Below are positions 3,074 to 17,897 of a stretch of DNA of 42,420 bases, in pieces. The position numbers were made by a program, and so were the translations under genes. The stretch is from a virus, in the UHGV virus genome UHGV-0094761, one strand, 5' to 3'. A model generated the notes under the pieces. It made no database searches and was not told the origin of the DNA. It was given only the letters and a program-made list of their open reading frames with translations. The first letter of the stretch is position 1. Every line of letters starts with the position of its first letter.

Positions 3074-3492
3074 GCCGTAGCCCCTTCTTGATATTTTTCG
3101 AACCAGAACACAACCGGCTTTTCGACTACTTCAACCAGGCCAAATCGTTCAGCGGTGCGGAAGTTGACACTGCTCTTGCGCCCGCGCTCAACCTGTAGAG
3201 ATATTTGTTTTCTGAACATCTCCAGCGAGTAAGAGGTTTTGAACAAGTTGCAGGGAGCGCATGCCGGAAACTGATTTTCCAGGGTATCAGCGTAGATATT
3301 CCGCACCTCTCCAGTAGCTTTGAGCTTGAAAATGCCTTTTTCAGCGGCCTTCATATCCTGCTCAGATATTCTCGCCACTGGCTGCACATGGTCAGCATGC
3401 CAGCCTTTCTCTGGTAGTTCACAGCCACAATAAGCACAGCGACCGCCGAACTTCATGCGCAACTCTGCACGTTGTTTTTTCGTCAGCGCCAT
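3070..3492 (-). CDS. HNH endonuclease
   Basis: 140 aa; CAYCGC...HADHVQP...CAPCN zinc-finger/HNH pattern; AAGGGGGAG RBS upstream of ATG at 3492. Confidence 0.8.
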   Translation of the reverse strand: MALTKKQRAELRMKFGGRCAYCGCELPEKGWHADHVQPVARISEQDMKAAEKGIFKLKATGEVRNIYADTLENQFPACAPCNLFKTSYSLEMFRKQISLQVERGRKSSVNFRTAERFGLVEVVEKPVVFWFEKYQEGATA

Positions 3493-3493
3493 C

Positions 3494-3892
3494 TCACTCC
3501 CCCTTCACGCCAATGCCAGCGGCGGCAAGCGCATCACGAAATGCACCAACAACTGCACAGGTGTTAAACATGTCATCGTTGATGCTGCCATCGTCGTTAC
3601 GGTAATCGGCTGGTAATTTAACGGTCACCTTACGCGCCTCCAGTTCTGCTATGCGCTTCTCTGCGGCTTCCAGTGCCTCCACAAGCCTTTCGATTTTTAA
3701 AAATGCTGCATACGCCAAATCAGAAATAGGTCGCTCGAACTGAATTTCTTTGCCATTTTCGTTTTCAATAATTGATTCGAAAATAGCCCCTGCAACAGGG
3801 GACTCTTGTAGTTCGCGTAGTTGTTTTGCCGTTTCCAGCGCATTGACTATCAGCATGTCGGTACGCAGCGCCTGTTTGTTGAGTGCTGTCAT
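3494..3892 (-). CDS. Hypothetical protein (coiled-coil)
   Basis: Start placed at the internal ATG at 3892 (MTALNKQ...), which overlaps the upstream stop as ATGA; the ORF track's longer start at 3967 would overlap the upstream gene. Confidence 0.5.
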   Translation of the reverse strand: MTALNKQALRTDMLIVNALETAKQLRELQESPVAGAIFESIIENENGKEIQFERPISDLAYAAFLKIERLVEALEAAEKRIAELEARKVTVKLPADYRNDDGSINDDMFNTCAVVGAFRDALAAAGIGVKGE

Positions 3893-4383
3893 TGGGCTTC
3901 CTCCAGTTTCGATTTGCGCAGTGCTTCTTTGTAACTTGCCTTTGCCGCTTTCTTTGTCGGCATCCAATCACCGCGAACGTCATAATACGAATCCCAATAC
4001 GCCCGCGAACGGCGGACCATGCGGTATTCCCATTTGTACCGGCCAACTTCACGGTCCTCGTAAACCGGCAACTCAATCCCCAGCCACTCCCCAAACGATT
4101 CGCAGACTTCTGAGTGAAGATAATCATCGTAACGAGTACGTTTCTTCGGCTCTGGAAGTGCAGAAATTGCCGCTTCCTCGCCTTTTTCTGTGACGTGGTA
4201 AAGCGTTCCACCACCCACAAAATCAGGCGCGGGACGGGAGGTAGCGAAACCATCAGATACCAGTTCTTCCCACTTCACGTTATCCGTATGCCCTTCGCCA
4301 GCCAGGAAATAATTACGATATGGAGTGCGGTTTCGCTCACTGATGCCCAGCGCATGCTGCATGAGTTCAATTCCAGTGCTCAT
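3889..4383 (-). CDS. Hypothetical phage protein (164 aa)
   Basis: Protein-like ORF; ATG at 4383 overlaps the stop of the upstream 84-aa gene (ATGA). Confidence 0.6.
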   Translation of the reverse strand: MSTGIELMQHALGISERNRTPYRNYFLAGEGHTDNVKWEELVSDGFATSRPAPDFVGGGTLYHVTEKGEEAAISALPEPKKRTRYDDYLHSEVCESFGEWLGIELPVYEDREVGRYKWEYRMVRRSRAYWDSYYDVRGDWMPTKKAAKASYKEALRKSKLEEAQ

Positions 4384-4634
4384 AGCGCGGTTCCCTGTCT
4401 GGCTTTGTTCAATAGCTGGTTAAACATCATGGTTAGGCTGTTACTACACCCAAACGGCATATCGTTAACACGGTAAGTAGGAATTCCCTTGCGAACACCA
4501 GACTTCACGATCCGGCCGGTGCCATAGAGTTGCGATAATGCGCCAGCGACCGCGGGTGTCTTTTTGTTCATACCTTTGGCGATTTCACCGCTGGTGGTAT
4601 TCGGATGAGCCTGGAGATATTCAAATACGGTCAT
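4380..4634 (-). CDS. Small hypothetical protein (84 aa), possible winged-helix DNA-binding
   Basis: Protein-like ORF in the coupled early-left chain. Confidence 0.5.
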   Translation of the reverse strand: MTVFEYLQAHPNTTSGEIAKGMNKKTPAVAGALSQLYGTGRIVKSGVRKGIPTYRVNDMPFGCSNSLTMMFNQLLNKARQGTAL

Positions 4635-4798
4635 GGCGTTTTACCTTTACGTTCCTGTTCCAGTTGCACCAGAGACTCTTTTAATGCTGCGAACGTAGCC
4701 TCCAGTCTGGTGGCGACTTCGCGCATAAGCGGTGCATGCTTTGGTGGCAATTCAGCAACTGAGGCAAAAGCCTCCGCTACGAGTTCTTTTACCTTCAT
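4631..4798 (-). CDS. Small hypothetical protein (55 aa), absent from the ORF track
   Basis: Manual translation MKVKELVAEAFASVAELPPKHAPLMREVATRLEATFAALKESLVQLEQERKGKTP; start ATG overlaps the HD gene stop (ATGA at 4795-4798) and its stop overlaps the next start (ATGA at 4631-4634). Confidence 0.4.
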   Translation of the reverse strand: MKVKELVAEAFASVAELPPKHAPLMREVATRLEATFAALKESLVQLEQERKGKTP

Positions 4799-5462: not shown

Positions 5463-6290
5463 TTAGGCTTTAAAGTTACCGATGAAAGTTTCCACTGATT
5501 CACCTTCGAACTTGCTGATCAGCAAATCGCGGAATTCGTTGGCGATCGCTTCTTCCTGGGCTTCAAGTTGGACAATGCGCAGAACAAAGCAGGGTTCATC
5601 GCTGGTCAGCAGGCTGTTACGCATGCTAAAGCGGCGTTCACCCAGACCTTCATACGGCACACATTTGAACTCGAACGCCACAGGCATTACGTCTTTGCTG
5701 CTTGCTTCAACGCTTTGCATCAGCGATTTTGTACCAGCGAAATCACCAGTTTCATGGTCCTGCTGGGTTGCTTGCTGAATAGTGATACGACGCACAGCCT
5801 GAGCCGCCTGGGAAATCTGCATCGTATTGCCATCAGCATCAAACGCCAGAAGGTAATCGCTCCAGTCTTCCAGCCATTCGGCGATTTGCTTTTGCTTCAG
5901 GCGTTGACCATCGATCTGCAGTAGCGCGCGGAACGGGGCGGTTTTCTTCAGGGTGATTGAAGCAACGTTATCGGCGTGACCGGGATTATCCAGGGTGCCG
6001 ATGTTGAACACTGAACGGGCGGTCATGTTGTCAGCGTCAATAAAGCAACGAGCTGGCTCACTGTCGCTGGCGTAACCTTTAGAATAACGTGCGAAGTCGT
6101 CAATACTGGTTGTGGTCATTGCGCCACGAAAGCGGAAACGCTCCAGAGAAAAGCGCTCGAGGCTTTCAATGCCAGTACCCTCTGGCAGTAATGCGGTCGG
6201 GCAAGCCAGGCCATGAATATCATTCAGGTGATAACCTGAAAGAACCAGGTCTTTGACCTGCTTGAAGGTACCGCTGTCTAACTGAGACAT
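5463..6290 (-). CDS. YfdQ-like protein (DUF2303-like, CPS-53-type prophage early protein)
   Basis: 275-aa ORF with AAGGAA RBS; family assignment is from memory of the CPS-53 yfdP-yfdQ-yfdR gene order, which matches the YfdP-like / this gene / HD-protein order here. Confidence 0.6.
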   Translation of the reverse strand: MSQLDSGTFKQVKDLVLSGYHLNDIHGLACPTALLPEGTGIESLERFSLERFRFRGAMTTTSIDDFARYSKGYASDSEPARCFIDADNMTARSVFNIGTLDNPGHADNVASITLKKTAPFRALLQIDGQRLKQKQIAEWLEDWSDYLLAFDADGNTMQISQAAQAVRRITIQQATQQDHETGDFAGTKSLMQSVEASSKDVMPVAFEFKCVPYEGLGERRFSMRNSLLTSDEPCFVLRIVQLEAQEEAIANEFRDLLISKFEGESVETFIGNFKA

Positions 6291-9853: not shown

Positions 9854-10033
9854 GTGCGCGAACTTAACCGAAGGTTCAAAGACCACCGCGGAGTGCAAGT
9901 CCGTGTTATCCGCTGGGAGCCAGAAACACAGCGCGTTATCTATCTGCGTGATGGCTACCCACACGAATGCTTCAGCCCACTTGAGCATTTCAGGCAAAAG
10001 TTCAGGGAGATAACGGACGATCATGAGCACTAA
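9854..10033 (+). CDS. Small hypothetical protein (59 aa), absent from the ORF track
   Basis: Manual translation from GTG 9854 with a GGAGGG RBS 10 nt upstream: VRELNRRFKDHRGVQVRVIRWEPETQRVIYLRDGYPHECFSPLEHFRQKFREITDDHEH; protein-like composition; overlaps the replication gene start by 11 nt. Confidence 0.4.
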   Translation: MRELNRRFKDHRGVQVRVIRWEPETQRVIYLRDGYPHECFSPLEHFRQKFREITDDHEH

Positions 10034-10880
10034 ATTAACCGGCTACGTATGGGATGGTTGCGCGGCGTCGGGCATGAAGTTGTCTAGTGTCGCGATCATG
10101 GCTCGCCTCGCTGATTTCAGCAGCGATGAGGGAGTGTGCTGGCCGTCCATTGAAACTATTGCTCGCCAGCTTGGCGCAGGGCCTAGCACGATCAGAACGG
10201 CAATCGCAAAGCTTGAAAAAGATGGCTGGCTCACGCGTACACAGCGCCGTAATGGTAACCGTAATGCGTCGAACGTGTACCGCCTGAATGTGGCGAAACT
10301 TCAGGCTGCCGCATTTTCTCAACTGTCAGATTCTGACACGTCAAAATCTGACGCATCAAAATTTGACGCCTCAAAAACTGACCCGTCGAAATCCGTCAAA
10401 AACGGCGGTTTTGACCCGTCAGAATCTGGCGGGGATCCGTCAGTAAAATCAAAACAAGATCCACAAGTAACTTCAAAACCCTCTTGTCCGGTTGCGGCGC
10501 AACCAGACCCTGAAGTCGTGATTACTGATCAGGCAATTTTGGTTCTGACCCATTTGAACCAGATCAGCGGATCCCGGTATCAGAAATCCAAAACATCCCT
10601 AGAGAACATCCGTGCCCGACTGCGTGAGGGATACAGCGTTGCAGACCTGCAACTGGTTATCGACCTGAAGCATGAGCACTGGCACGAGAACGACGAGCAG
10701 TACCAGTACATGCGCCCGGAAACGCTGTTCGGCCCGAAGAAATTCGAGAGCTATCTGCAAAGCGCTACCCGCTGGGAGCAGAAAGGACGGCCTAAACGCG
10801 CTGACTGGGGTGCGAAAAAGCGCGATGTGATGGCTTTTGGTCCGGTTGATACAACGATTCCAGAGGGGTTCAGAGGATGA
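10023..10880 (+). CDS. Replication initiation protein (lambda O-like, N-terminal HTH, phage-type C-terminal domain)
   Basis: 285 aa; N-terminal winged-helix/HTH region (IETIARQLGAGPSTIRTAIAKLEKDGWL); central low-complexity region encoded by iterons; position after cro/cII matches lambdoid order. Confidence 0.75.
   Translation: MSTKLTGYVWDGCAASGMKLSSVAIMARLADFSSDEGVCWPSIETIARQLGAGPSTIRTAIAKLEKDGWLTRTQRRNGNRNASNVYRLNVAKLQAAAFSQLSDSDTSKSDASKFDASKTDPSKSVKNGGFDPSESGGDPSVKSKQDPQVTSKPSCPVAAQPDPEVVITDQAILVLTHLNQISGSRYQKSKTSLENIRARLREGYSVADLQLVIDLKHEHWHENDEQYQYMRPETLFGPKKFESYLQSATRWEQKGRPKRADWGAKKRDVMAFGPVDTTIPEGFRG
10326..10450. repeat. Iteron array (putative replication origin) inside the replication initiator gene
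   Basis: Seven or more tandem repeats of about 15 bp of the form (C/T)TGAC(G/C)C(A/G)TCAAAA(T/A), followed by an A-rich stretch; analogous to ori-lambda lying inside gene O. Confidence 0.65.
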
Positions 10881-12196
10881 CGTTAAACAAATATTGCCAG
10901 TCGCTGGCGGCACTACGTAGCCAACCAGCCCACGAATTGAAAGAAGTTGGCGATCAGTGGCGAACACCGGATCTGCTTTTTTGGGGGATCAACGCGCTAT
11001 TTGGTCCATTAGTTCTGGACTTGTTTGCTGACGCCGACAACGCGAAATGCCCGGCATGGTACACCGCCGAAGATAACGCGCTGACACAGAACTGGTCTGA
11101 ACGTCTGGATGAACTGGGCGGCGCGGCTTTTGCCAACCCTCCATATAGCCGCTCCCAGTATCACGACAAGCAGGCGATTACGGGTATGACGCACATCATG
11201 AATCACACCATGGACATGCGTGAAAGAGGTGGTCGCTATATTTACCTGGTGAAGTCTGCCACAAGTGAAACATGGTGGCCGGAAGATGCCGATCACATCA
11301 TGTTTATTCGTGGTCGTATTGGGTTCGATCTGCCTGTGTGGTTTGTACCTGCTGACGAAAAACAGAAACCCACCAGCGCGTTTTTTGCCGGTGCTATAGC
11401 TGTATTCGATAAGTCATGGCGTGGTGAGCGGTTCAGCTATATCAACCGTACAGAACTGGAGGCAAAAGGGCGGGCGTTTATGACTTTGGCGCAATTTGCT
11501 GCCAGCAAGTCTCAACCTGCAACTGCCACACCATCTGTAGCTGACAAGCCAGAAGCAGAGTTGCCACTTACCCAGAAAGATATTTTTGATATCAGCGGTG
11601 TCGAGGCGTGGGCATGCGTTAGAGCTGCGTTCGGCGATAAAGAAGAATACACATTCAGTGAATCGAAGTTTGGGCATACCTGGGCGGCGGATTCTGTCGA
11701 AGCACCGGAATTCACTCAGGTATCACCATTAACGATCGACAAAGCGAAGCTGCTTATTCGTGAGAGTATTTTGTTCGGTGTGGATGAGTGGCTGTTGTCG
11801 ATTGAATTCGATGACGCTGCTGCGCGCCTGGATATGTCGGAACGTATTCGGACTGTTGCCCTTGAAGCATCTGGTGAATATGGCATGAACAGTACTGATT
11901 TCATTGCAGCTATGGGAAGCCTGGATGTTTCCAGTTGGTCCAATATTCGCCAGATCCGCATGCACATCCGTGAGAAAGCTAAACCAGTATCGGATCCGCT
12001 TCCCGAGTCCCGTATCTGGCCGCTGGAGGTTGGAATTGTATTCGACCAGGTAGACGGCGCTGACATGCTGGATGAATCACAGCAGAACAAGCTGAAAGCC
12101 AACATCAATCAACTCTGGCTGGAGCGGACTGCCACCAGCGAAATCATTACTGCTGCTTCTGAACTTGTTCGCAATATGCGGGGAGAGGCTGCGTGA
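10877..12196 (+). CDS. Phage Dam-family N6-adenine DNA methyltransferase fused to a C-terminal domain of unknown function
   Basis: 439 aa; N-terminal region has WRTPD and NPPYS motifs typical of the phage Dam family; about 250 extra C-terminal residues; start overlaps the upstream stop (ATGA). Confidence 0.65.
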   Translation: MTLNKYCQSLAALRSQPAHELKEVGDQWRTPDLLFWGINALFGPLVLDLFADADNAKCPAWYTAEDNALTQNWSERLDELGGAAFANPPYSRSQYHDKQAITGMTHIMNHTMDMRERGGRYIYLVKSATSETWWPEDADHIMFIRGRIGFDLPVWFVPADEKQKPTSAFFAGAIAVFDKSWRGERFSYINRTELEAKGRAFMTLAQFAASKSQPATATPSVADKPEAELPLTQKDIFDISGVEAWACVRAAFGDKEEYTFSESKFGHTWAADSVEAPEFTQVSPLTIDKAKLLIRESILFGVDEWLLSIEFDDAAARLDMSERIRTVALEASGEYGMNSTDFIAAMGSLDVSSWSNIRQIRMHIREKAKPVSDPLPESRIWPLEVGIVFDQVDGADMLDESQQNKLKANINQLWLERTATSEIITAASELVRNMRGEAA

Positions 12197-12579
12197 AACT
12201 GGTCCTGCCTTTTCCTCCGAGCGTGAATACTTACTGGCGCGCCCCTAACAAGGGGCCGCTGGCCGGTCGTCACCTCATTAGCGCTGATGGCCGTAAATAC
12301 CAAAGCGCTGCCTGCGTGGCGATCATTGAGCAATTACGACGTCTCCCGAAGCCATCGACTGAACTGGCAGCGGTAGAAATCACTCTGTACCCGCCGGATG
12401 CGCGCCGCCGGGATATCGATAATTACAACAAAGCCCTGTTTGACGCGCTGACGCATGCGGGTGTCTGGGAAGACGACAGCCAGATTAAGCGCATGCTGGT
12501 GGAATGGGGACCCGTTGTGCCGAAAGGTCGGGTAGAGATAACGATCAGCAGATATGAACCGGCGGGTGCAGCCGCCTGA
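12193..12579 (+). CDS. rusA: RusA-type Holliday junction resolvase
   Basis: 128 aa; MKLVLPFPPSVNTYW...DIDNYNKALFDALTHAGVWEDDSQI is the characteristic RusA signature; GTG start overlaps the upstream stop (GTGA) with a GGGAGAGG RBS. Confidence 0.85.
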   Translation: MKLVLPFPPSVNTYWRAPNKGPLAGRHLISADGRKYQSAACVAIIEQLRRLPKPSTELAAVEITLYPPDARRRDIDNYNKALFDALTHAGVWEDDSQIKRMLVEWGPVVPKGRVEITISRYEPAGAAA

Positions 12580-16844: not shown

Positions 16845-17897
16845 ATGAAAAGTACTGTAAAAATAAACAGTGTTGAGTTAATCAACGCTGATAGCCTGCA
16901 TTACGTCGCCACCCTCCCGGATAACTCTATTGATCTGATAGTTACGGATCCGCCGTATTTCAAAGTGAAACCCAACGGCTGGGACAACCAATGGAAGGGG
17001 GACGAGGACTACTTACGCTGGCTTGATAGCTGTCTGGCTGAGTATGCTCGCGTTCTTAAACCTGCTGGCAGCATTTACCTGTTTTGCGGTCACCGACTGG
17101 CCTCAGATATAGAGATTATGATGCGTGCCCGGTTCAACGTTTTGAATCACATAATTTGGGCAAAACCATCAGGCCGCTGGAATGGATGTAACAAAGAAAG
17201 CCTGCGTGCGTACTTTCCATCTACGGAACGGATTTTGTTTGCTGAGCACTATCTTGGGCCGTATACAGGTAAAGAGGATGTTTACGAAAGGAAAAGCACA
17301 GAGCTAAAGCAGCACATTATGACGCCGCTGATTGATTACTTCCGTAATGCCCGTGAATCACTGGGTGTCAGCTCGAAAGAAATAGCTGAGGCAACAGGAA
17401 AGAAAAACATGGCGTCACACTGGTTTGGTGCAAGCCAATGGCAACTACCAAATGAAGTGGACTATAGAAAATTGCAGGAACTGTTCACGCGGATCGCTAT
17501 CGATAAGCACATTGAGCAGAAACTTGAACATCCTCACCACCAGCTGGTAGCTACCTATCAGTCATTAAACCGCAAGTATTCAGAATTGCTGGAGGAATAC
17601 AAAACTCTCCGGCGCTGCTTCTCTGTCTCCGCTCTAGTTCCGTATACCGACGTATGGACGCATAAGCCTGTTCAGTTTTATCCGGGCAAACATCCATGCG
17701 AAAAACCTGCCGACATGCTGAAGCAGATCATTAGCGCCAGCAGCAGGCCGGGGGATATCGTTGCCGATTTCTTTATGGGCTCTGGTTCAACTGTGAAAGC
17801 AGCAATAGAACTTGGCCGTCGGGCGATCGGTGTAGAACTGGAGGAAGACAGGTTTATACAGACCACCGAAGAGGTGGAAAAACTGAAAAAATCATAA
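16845..17897 (+). CDS. DNA methyltransferase (beta-class N6-adenine/N4-cytosine, orphan)
   Basis: 350 aa; catalytic DPPY motif (VTDPPYF) near the N-terminus and AdoMet-binding FxGxG (DFFMGSGSTV) near the C-terminus; no adjacent restriction endonuclease. Confidence 0.8.
   Translation: MKSTVKINSVELINADSLHYVATLPDNSIDLIVTDPPYFKVKPNGWDNQWKGDEDYLRWLDSCLAEYARVLKPAGSIYLFCGHRLASDIEIMMRARFNVLNHIIWAKPSGRWNGCNKESLRAYFPSTERILFAEHYLGPYTGKEDVYERKSTELKQHIMTPLIDYFRNARESLGVSSKEIAEATGKKNMASHWFGASQWQLPNEVDYRKLQELFTRIAIDKHIEQKLEHPHHQLVATYQSLNRKYSELLEEYKTLRRCFSVSALVPYTDVWTHKPVQFYPGKHPCEKPADMLKQIISASSRPGDIVADFFMGSGSTVKAAIELGRRAIGVELEEDRFIQTTEEVEKLKKS

Follow-up and report, generated by a model that had tools for sequence, protein, structure and literature searches.

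What does a phage adenine methyltransferase do with a C-terminal half that lies outside its catalytic family? The question is raised by a gene in a 42,420-nucleotide stretch of DNA from UHGV virus genome UHGV-0094761, which is called the window here and is a lambdoid prophage. The gene (10877..12196, stop codon included, with an ATG start) lies on the plus strand, as do all of its parts described below, and encodes a Dam-type methyltransferase with accessory domains, 439 amino acids (aa) in length. A first-pass annotation had read it as a Dam-family enzyme followed by one separate acidic domain of 250 residues. We find that this extension is two independent all-alpha domains, an inserted module of about 140 aa and an ordinary tail of about 65 aa, and that the unusual part of the protein is the insert of about 140 aa, not 250. 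Orphan methyltransferases are widespread in phages, and how rapidly replicating phage DNA is found and fully modified is poorly understood. The overall best explanation for the present gene, to which we assign a probability of about 0.55, is an orphan phage N6-methyladenine (m6A) methyltransferase equipped with tethered protein-contact or targeting domains.

Domain architecture

The catalytic core (aa 1-210, 10877..11506) is a full member of its family, clearing the thresholds of both PF05869 (aa 19-199, expect value (E) = 3e-44, 151 bits against a cut-off of 28.1) and the NCBIfam model TIGR01712 (aa 16-197, 203 bits against 97.05). A regular-expression search places the WRTPD motif from aa 28 onwards, and the catalytic motif IV, NPPY (aa 87-90, 11135..11146), is intact by the same search and by direct reading of the sequence. 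The rest of the protein, aa 200-439, is non-catalytic and acidic (isoelectric point (pI) 4.54, net charge -16), as the first-pass annotation had recognised. These residues have zero matches in Pfam and NCBIfam; the tail is matched by phrog_16025 and by the PADLOC model PDLC03332.

The PADLOC match locates the insertion precisely. PDLC03332 (297 positions, E = 9e-161) aligns in two stretches, aa 4-225 with positions 3-224 and aa 369-439 with positions 227-297, and the 140-aa insertion falls between positions 224 and 227. BLASTP against phage proteins gave a corresponding pattern, in that ST64B Sb44 (297 aa) and LLS gp45 (295 aa) match aa 1-230 at about 80% identity and then the last ~65 residues without the middle, Eeyore CDS0032 (444 aa) is colinear over the full length at 73% identity, and the ParB-like gp48 of Pantoea phage AH07 (440 aa) matches the middle only, from about aa 228 to 366, at 36% identity. 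From these two patterns the gene is therefore an Sb44-type Dam with a module of about 140 aa inserted between core and tail. Short-form Dam proteins of 292-293 aa, which carry the tail, are found by the hundred in Citrobacter, Salmonella and E. coli; phrog_111 spans aa 3-438 and phrog_16025 is confined to aa 379-434. The two-stretch PADLOC match and the short forms replace the single 250-aa domain of the first-pass annotation with module plus tail. Its estimate that such enzymes usually measure 180-250 aa is in keeping with the family models taken by themselves (165-169 positions). The closest relatives, by contrast, reach 292-297 aa because the last ~65 aa of the present protein are already there.

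Predicted structure agrees with these boundaries. The core is followed by linker 1 (aa 211-227, 11507..11557), a variable stretch rich in Ala, Pro, Thr and Ser that is predicted to be disordered (predicted local distance difference test (pLDDT) below 50 for aa 207-227) and that is not alignable between long and short forms. The inserted module (aa 228-368, 11558..11980), which is absent from the short forms, appears in an AlphaFold2 (AF2) model of aa 222-439 (mean pLDDT 85.7) as nine helices over aa ~233-367 with pLDDT above 90, and its family signature is SGVEAWAC..AAFG.K.EYTF.ESKF.HTWAADS ... ER ... W.NIR.IR. Linker 2 (aa 369-378, 11981..12010) is disordered, with pLDDT below 50 at aa 371-378 in this and in the full-length AF2 model, and this break separates the module from the three-helix tail (aa 379-439, 12011..12193), which is modelled over aa ~383-434 at pLDDT 84-91 and is typical of the prophage Dam proteins of the enterobacterial Sb44/ST64B-type lineage. 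A possible origin of the tail as a repeat of the C-terminal part of the module was rejected, as hhalign gave a probability below 1% for all pairs.

Searches meant to identify the accessory domains gave no convincing match. Foldseek searches of the PDB and BFVD returned nothing at E <= 1e-3, sequence and profile searches of the PDB gave zero matches for module and tail, and Pfam, NCBIfam and PADLOC hold no model of the module, the sole match to the extension among them being that of the tail in PADLOC. Both domains are thus described neither in Pfam (2025 copy) nor in NCBIfam (2026).

Integrity of the reading frame

A catalytic core that fills less than half of the open reading frame (ORF), together with a few database entries that appear as separate short proteins, could suggest that the long frame is an artefact in which a sequencing frameshift or read-through joins two genes. 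The evidence makes this extremely improbable. The full-length gene is present at 93-95% nucleotide identity in 24 of the 5,426 complete genomes of E. coli, among them that of the probiotic strain Nissle 1917 (WP_001704140.1), with an identical frame throughout and a full-length annotation as 'phage N-6-adenine-methyltransferase'. Module scans found 271 viral contigs in IMG/VR and 8 of 185,579 species-representative genomes, and among the 88 loci that were fetched 77 hold an intact ORF of core, module and tail, 76 of them 439-448 aa and one 481 aa long. The ratio of nonsynonymous to synonymous substitution rates (dN/dS, by the Nei-Gojobori method, comparing the present gene with three homologues) lies at 0.06-0.12 in the module and at 0.11-0.12 in the tail, against 0.04-0.18 in the catalytic core, and is highest in linker 1 (0.35-0.52); these values mean that the extension is translated and that purifying selection acts on it. 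Apparent split genes could be traced, in single assemblies, to N runs, the ends of contigs, nonsense mutations or frameshifts. The reading frame of 439 codons is accordingly a real gene, and the frameshift that the first-pass annotation had named as its own possible undoing is refuted by the intact loci, the complete genomes and the low dN/dS.

Two long-form copies, in Citrobacter murliniae CP163158.1 (L013, ~3300-4639) and at locus L096, are frameshifted within the Dam core while module and tail are still in frame, leaving residual ORFs of 336 and 405 aa; the module in C. murliniae and that of the window are 99% identical, a match that suggests an origin of the window in Citrobacter or a near relative.

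Distribution and fusion partners of the module

The module is rare, with 21 matches at E <= 1e-3 in an exhaustive HMMER search of 1.84 billion cluster representatives, and two profile searches of a database of 5.8 billion proteins added no further partner domains. In all informative matches it is fused to the C-terminus of another protein, either a PF05869 Dam core or a ParB-like protein, and four architectures are seen. The first, a PF05869 core with module and tail, comprises the present gene and P0145 (53% identity), and the second, core and module without the tail, is seen at L005 and L006. The third joins the module to a ParB-like protein (AH07 gp48, P0146, P0147, P0149, P0150, L019, L020). 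The fourth is that of P0153 (469 aa), P0159 (505 aa) and a copy from Plesiomonas, whose PF05869 cores are remoter and are followed by a long acidic linker and a helical extension of related type; all three of these proteins have the module and lack the tail. In other phages the C-terminal part does recur, on the ParB-like proteins, but in no case does it have a start codon to itself. No stand-alone module gene was found, and every short candidate is explained otherwise: P0004, P0005 and P0010 are fragments or deletion variants, the apparent split of L005 and L006 is an artefact of N runs, L007-L009 (TAG) and L104 (TAA) are ParB-module genes interrupted by one nonsense codon, and L105 is a frameshifted copy. 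The interrupted genes belong to two independent lineages of ParB-like protein plus module, each with one in-frame stop codon close to where the module begins (TAG at L007 4986, L008 668 and L009 151; TAA at L104 33), and the TAG variant was found in three different samples; nonsense mutations by which the fusion is split or inactivated are the probable explanation.

The ParB-module genes adjoin DNA-modifying enzymes in two cases. In AH07 the neighbouring gp49 is a DpdA-type transglycosylase (phrog_887, E = 8e-97), and at L104 the gene after the ParB-module gene encodes an MT-A70 adenine methyltransferase. According to published work, phage ParB-like proteins can serve as activators or required partners of enzymes that modify DNA bases, as with a thymine dioxygenase (PMC13229309) and with the pair of DpdB and DpdA (PMC10164549), and fusions of phage ParB folds to methyltransferases are frequent (PMC12704722). 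The partners of the module resemble a Rosetta-stone relationship, in which it is fused either to a modifying enzyme or to a ParB-like helper beside one.

The association with ParB also raises the alternative that module, tail or both serve in oligomerisation and make the methyltransferase a dimer, in the manner of the C-terminal domain of ParB. Both are C-terminal, all-alpha and flexibly tethered, in AH07 gp48 the module stands C-terminal to the ParB N-terminal and helix-turn-helix (HTH) domains, and ParB C-terminal domains dimerise and are required in phage ParB activators (PMC12704722, PMC13229309). However, close ParB homologues that do not have the module are complete proteins of 265-277 aa, and the module is therefore appended to ParB and replaces no dimerisation domain; a replacement was rejected on these grounds and for want of any Pfam match to the module. 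As the invariant residues of the module, given below, are mostly polar or charged and do not form a hydrophobic interface, we regard oligomerisation as unlikely.

A model for the extension

We propose a model that starts from what the analysis establishes, namely the anatomy of the protein, an intact gene, a clean insertion, purifying selection, fusion to a few kinds of partner only and a lack of known relatives. The PF05869 core would be an orphan DNA methyltransferase of the N6-adenine type, made from the early-right operon, in which its gene comes straight after that of the replication initiator, and would presumably methylate phage DNA in lytic growth. The module of about 140 aa was gained by an in-frame domain insertion between core and tail, and it, and probably the tail too, would act as a tethered non-catalytic contact or targeting domain on disordered linkers. 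The module would bind a conserved partner, which may be a protein or the module itself, and thereby localise or assemble DNA-modifying enzymes; direct binding of DNA, or catalysis, by the module is not favoured. A protein-contact or targeting role of the extension, taken in this broad sense, is a tentative proposal that we hold at somewhat less than even odds. More doubtful is the extended form of the model, in which the module would be a previously undescribed domain family for temperate-phage DNA modification, a portable adaptor, carried by Dam or by a ParB-like helper, that would lead the enzymes to one conserved target shared among them, whether on replicating phage DNA or in the host. Were the role confirmed, a shared mobile domain would suggest that phage DNA-modifying enzymes have a mechanism of targeting or assembly in common, and the finding gains in interest if the module is indeed a shared adaptor of phage DNA-modification systems. 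As the gene is present in Nissle 1917, a comparison of full-length and truncated protein is easy.

The residues on which such a contact would depend come from a broadened family alignment (11 members, 27-51% identical to the present sequence), in which A250, F252, S263, H267, W269, D272, P277, R323, N356, R358 and R361 are invariant. Because so many of these are polar, they suggest a specific binding site. What that site binds is the point on which the closest rival to our model turns, that of a DNA-binding or target-recognition domain that lends extra affinity, processivity or site preference to PF05869 cores and ParB-like proteins. The module is fused to DNA-acting proteins only, N356, R358, R361, R323 and H267 hold across its divergent members, and its last two helices are HTH-like in layout in the AF2 model, all of which would suit such a domain. 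Its electrostatics would not, since the net charge lies between 0 and -14 in all 11 members (10 of them acidic, -5 to -14) and Lys/Arg positions are no better conserved than Asp/Glu (0.49 against 0.43, p = 0.31). A basic patch on an acidic scaffold was rejected for this reason. The conserved acidity and the lack of any Lys/Arg preference therefore favour protein contact over DNA binding and leave a DNA-binding surface unsupported; furthermore, a disordered linker holds the module at a distance from the core, and forms without the module are common. We consider DNA binding an outside, though real, prospect.

The same acidity might suggest that the extension is a DNA mimic or some other anti-restriction or anti-defence domain, in line with its pI of 4.5, its early expression from a phage and its fusion to a protective methyltransferase. 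The acidity is only moderate (net -12 over 139 aa), no likeness to Ocr/ArdA-type proteins was seen in Pfam, PHROG functions, PADLOC, the PDB or BFVD, nor any to known models of anti-restriction or defence proteins, and the presence of the module on ParB-like proteins is ill-suited to a decoy, leaving this explanation very improbable.

The first-pass annotation had suggested that the extension might couple methylation to replication or recombination, or to an anti-restriction function; coupling to replication would mean recruitment of the enzyme to the replication initiator or replisome. A replication gene of DnaD-like/HTH_36 type, with or without Phg_2220_C, lies upstream in 74 of the 77 intact loci, and each of the start contexts tallied shows an ATGA overlap. 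Such an initiator adjoins every module- or tail-bearing gene examined, and the two ParB homologues without the module that were examined adjoin O/P-type replication genes as annotated, Pfam Phage_rep_O being confirmed for Mulock only. This association of initiator type comes from a small sample and is confounded by linkage, and the gene order of a lambdoid early operon is kept whether or not its products interact. Sliding-window identity between the window and E. coli 1943 shows, moreover, no co-variation of the extension with the C-terminal domain of the initiator. The late core, linker, module, tail and rusA (~11290-12485) are 93-100% identical, and 97-100% from ~11440, with module and tail at 99-100%, whereas the C-terminal third of the initiator including Phg_2220_C (~10470-10900) falls to 52-76% and a patch of the core (~11060-11290) to 75-83%. 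We hold recruitment to the initiator or replisome to be quite unlikely. By these identities the gene is a recombinational mosaic with breakpoints at domain boundaries. The patch in the core, which corresponds to aa ~62-138, is 73-83% identical to the Nissle and 1943 copies between flanks of 92-100%, and it begins just before NPPY and spans the following helix and strand; it is a patch of recombination or diversification and might affect specificity.

Several points weigh against our own model of tethered contact or targeting domains. H267, D272, N356, R323, R358 and R361, together with the HTH-like helices, could equally make up a nucleic-acid or small-ligand site. The contact or targeting role is read from sequence and a predicted structure, and adenine methyltransferase activity and specificity are ascribed to the 439-aa protein from its family membership. 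In the full-length AF2 model most of the Dam core has a pLDDT below 60, and contacts between core and extension are not assessable from it. The abundance of short forms means that the module is dispensable for the enzyme, and the missing co-variation counts against the initiator as its partner.

Known relatives and annotation

The closest known relatives are Sb44 of Salmonella phage ST64B and the Dam proteins of ~292-297 aa from prophages of Citrobacter, Salmonella and E. coli (PHROG 111; PDLC03332), which resemble the present protein in the core (~79-83% identity) and in the ~65-aa tail. Their genes occupy the same slot, after a DnaD-like replication gene and often before rusA. They differ in having a linker of ~25 aa where the present protein has the ~140-aa module, and because of this insertion the present protein, which has the core and tail features of the Sb44 type, departs from its colinear architecture of ~297 aa. 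Colinear members of the long form are Eeyore CDS0032 and the 439-aa proteins of Nissle 1917 and E. coli 1943 (WP_096035032.1). Literature searches found nothing on the extension or on the Dam gene in the Nissle 1917 prophage. The gene is already public under a generic methyltransferase name.

The HP1/T1-type phage Dam proteins (PF05869, TIGR01712; 165-169 positions) have the catalytic domain and NPPY in common with the present protein, and both family models describe the core of ~170 aa only, with nothing for module or tail. Characterised HP1-Dam-type members form m6A with S-adenosylmethionine as methyl donor, in the target GATC. By analogy with this family GATC would also be the expected target of the 439-aa protein. 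The frequency of GATC in the window was dropped as a clue to specificity, since the count (181 observed against 161 +/- 12 expected) indicates neither avoidance nor enrichment and is uninformative. Kinship with the non-specific methyltransferases Hia5 and Hin1523 was also rejected, as those are enzymes of another class in which DPPY is followed by FxGxG.

AH07 gp48 and the related ParB-like proteins with the module (435-451 aa) share with the present protein a C-terminal module at 36-41% identity and a location in the early-operon region, in their case beside DNA-modification genes, and differ in having an N-terminal ParB-like NTPase/HTH protein in place of a methyltransferase, and no tail. 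The phage ParB-like activators (the 5mYOX-associated ParB, and DpdB with DpdA; PMC13229309, PMC10164549) are alike in concept, as non-catalytic helpers of a base-modifying enzyme; no similarity of sequence or fold between them and the module was detected, and the analogy is one of gene neighbourhood and domain-fusion logic.

The Dam-type proteins of Eeyore (L001 2398-3732) and Flotzy and of the RefSeq entry for ST64B sb44 (L004 2320-3213) are wrongly labelled 'phosphoadenosine phosphosulfate reductase'. PHROG 33262 was built on fusions of phosphoadenosine phosphosulfate (PAPS) reductase with Dam, and the present protein matches the Dam part only, positions 284-492. The label looks like a propagated misannotation, likely by way of this PHROG. 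A practical gain of the analysis is the correction of 'PAPS reductase' labels and the definition of boundaries for two domains missing from curated libraries.

YfdM (b2356, 91 aa; L101 8113-8388, minus strand), from the cryptic prophage CPS-53 of E. coli K-12 MG1655, is the N-terminal piece of an Sb44-type Dam, alignable to aa 4-90 of the present protein at 78% identity and ending in 'NPPYPW*', without most of the catalytic domain. YfdM had been considered as a homologue of the tail, a match that would have linked the tail to a published phenotype, and this was rejected as YfdM aligns to the core. The activation of phage SW1 has been ascribed to the 'methylase' activity of YfdM (preprint 10.1101/413146). 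As YfdM is cut at motif IV it is unlikely to be an active methyltransferase, and the 'methylase' mechanism proposed for SW1 therefore merits re-examination.

Genomic context

In the window the early-right operon runs in the order CII-like protein, DUF4222, replication protein, Dam gene, RusA, Rha/ANT antirepressor, DUF968/HNH and Q. The extent of the Dam ORF and its overlaps with both neighbours are as first annotated. The start overlaps the stop of the upstream replication gene (10023-10880, a 285-aa ORF) in ATGA (10877..10880, within ggATGAcg), and the stop overlaps the start of the downstream rusA (12193-12579, a 128-aa ORF with a GTG start) in GTGA (12193..12196, within gcGTGAaa). The 285-aa protein is of the replication initiator type, with Pfam matches to HTH_36 and Phg_2220_C and a weak one to DnaD_N, and the 128-aa protein is RusA (PF05866). 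No gene for a cognate restriction endonuclease adjoins the Dam gene, whose neighbours are those just listed; the Dam gene thus behaves as an orphan methyltransferase, despite its PADLOC label 'MTase_II' (type II restriction-modification).

The first-pass annotation had noted the coupling with rusA, which is not conserved. Across the 77 intact loci the downstream gene encodes a 645-aa C5-cytosine methyltransferase in 39, RusA in 27 and another protein in 11, GTGA overlaps being common, and because of this variation the coupling is incidental. In the 39 loci with the C5-cytosine methyltransferase, for example L001 3725-5662 (Eeyore CDS0033), that gene overlaps the long-form Dam gene by GTGA and forms with it a two-enzyme modification island.

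A paralogue search of the window found no other protein carrying module or tail. A second DNA methyltransferase gene is present at 16845-17897 (plus strand, 350 aa; Pfam N6_N4_Mtase PF01555, E = 1e-44), where the late region begins after the Q antiterminator gene, and with the PF05869 gene it gives this one prophage two unrelated DNA methyltransferases. The window also encodes a DUF2303 protein (5463-6290, minus strand, E = 7e-66), of the family shared with YfdQ, the other CPS-53 gene reported to be necessary for the propagation of phage SW1 (10.1101/413146).

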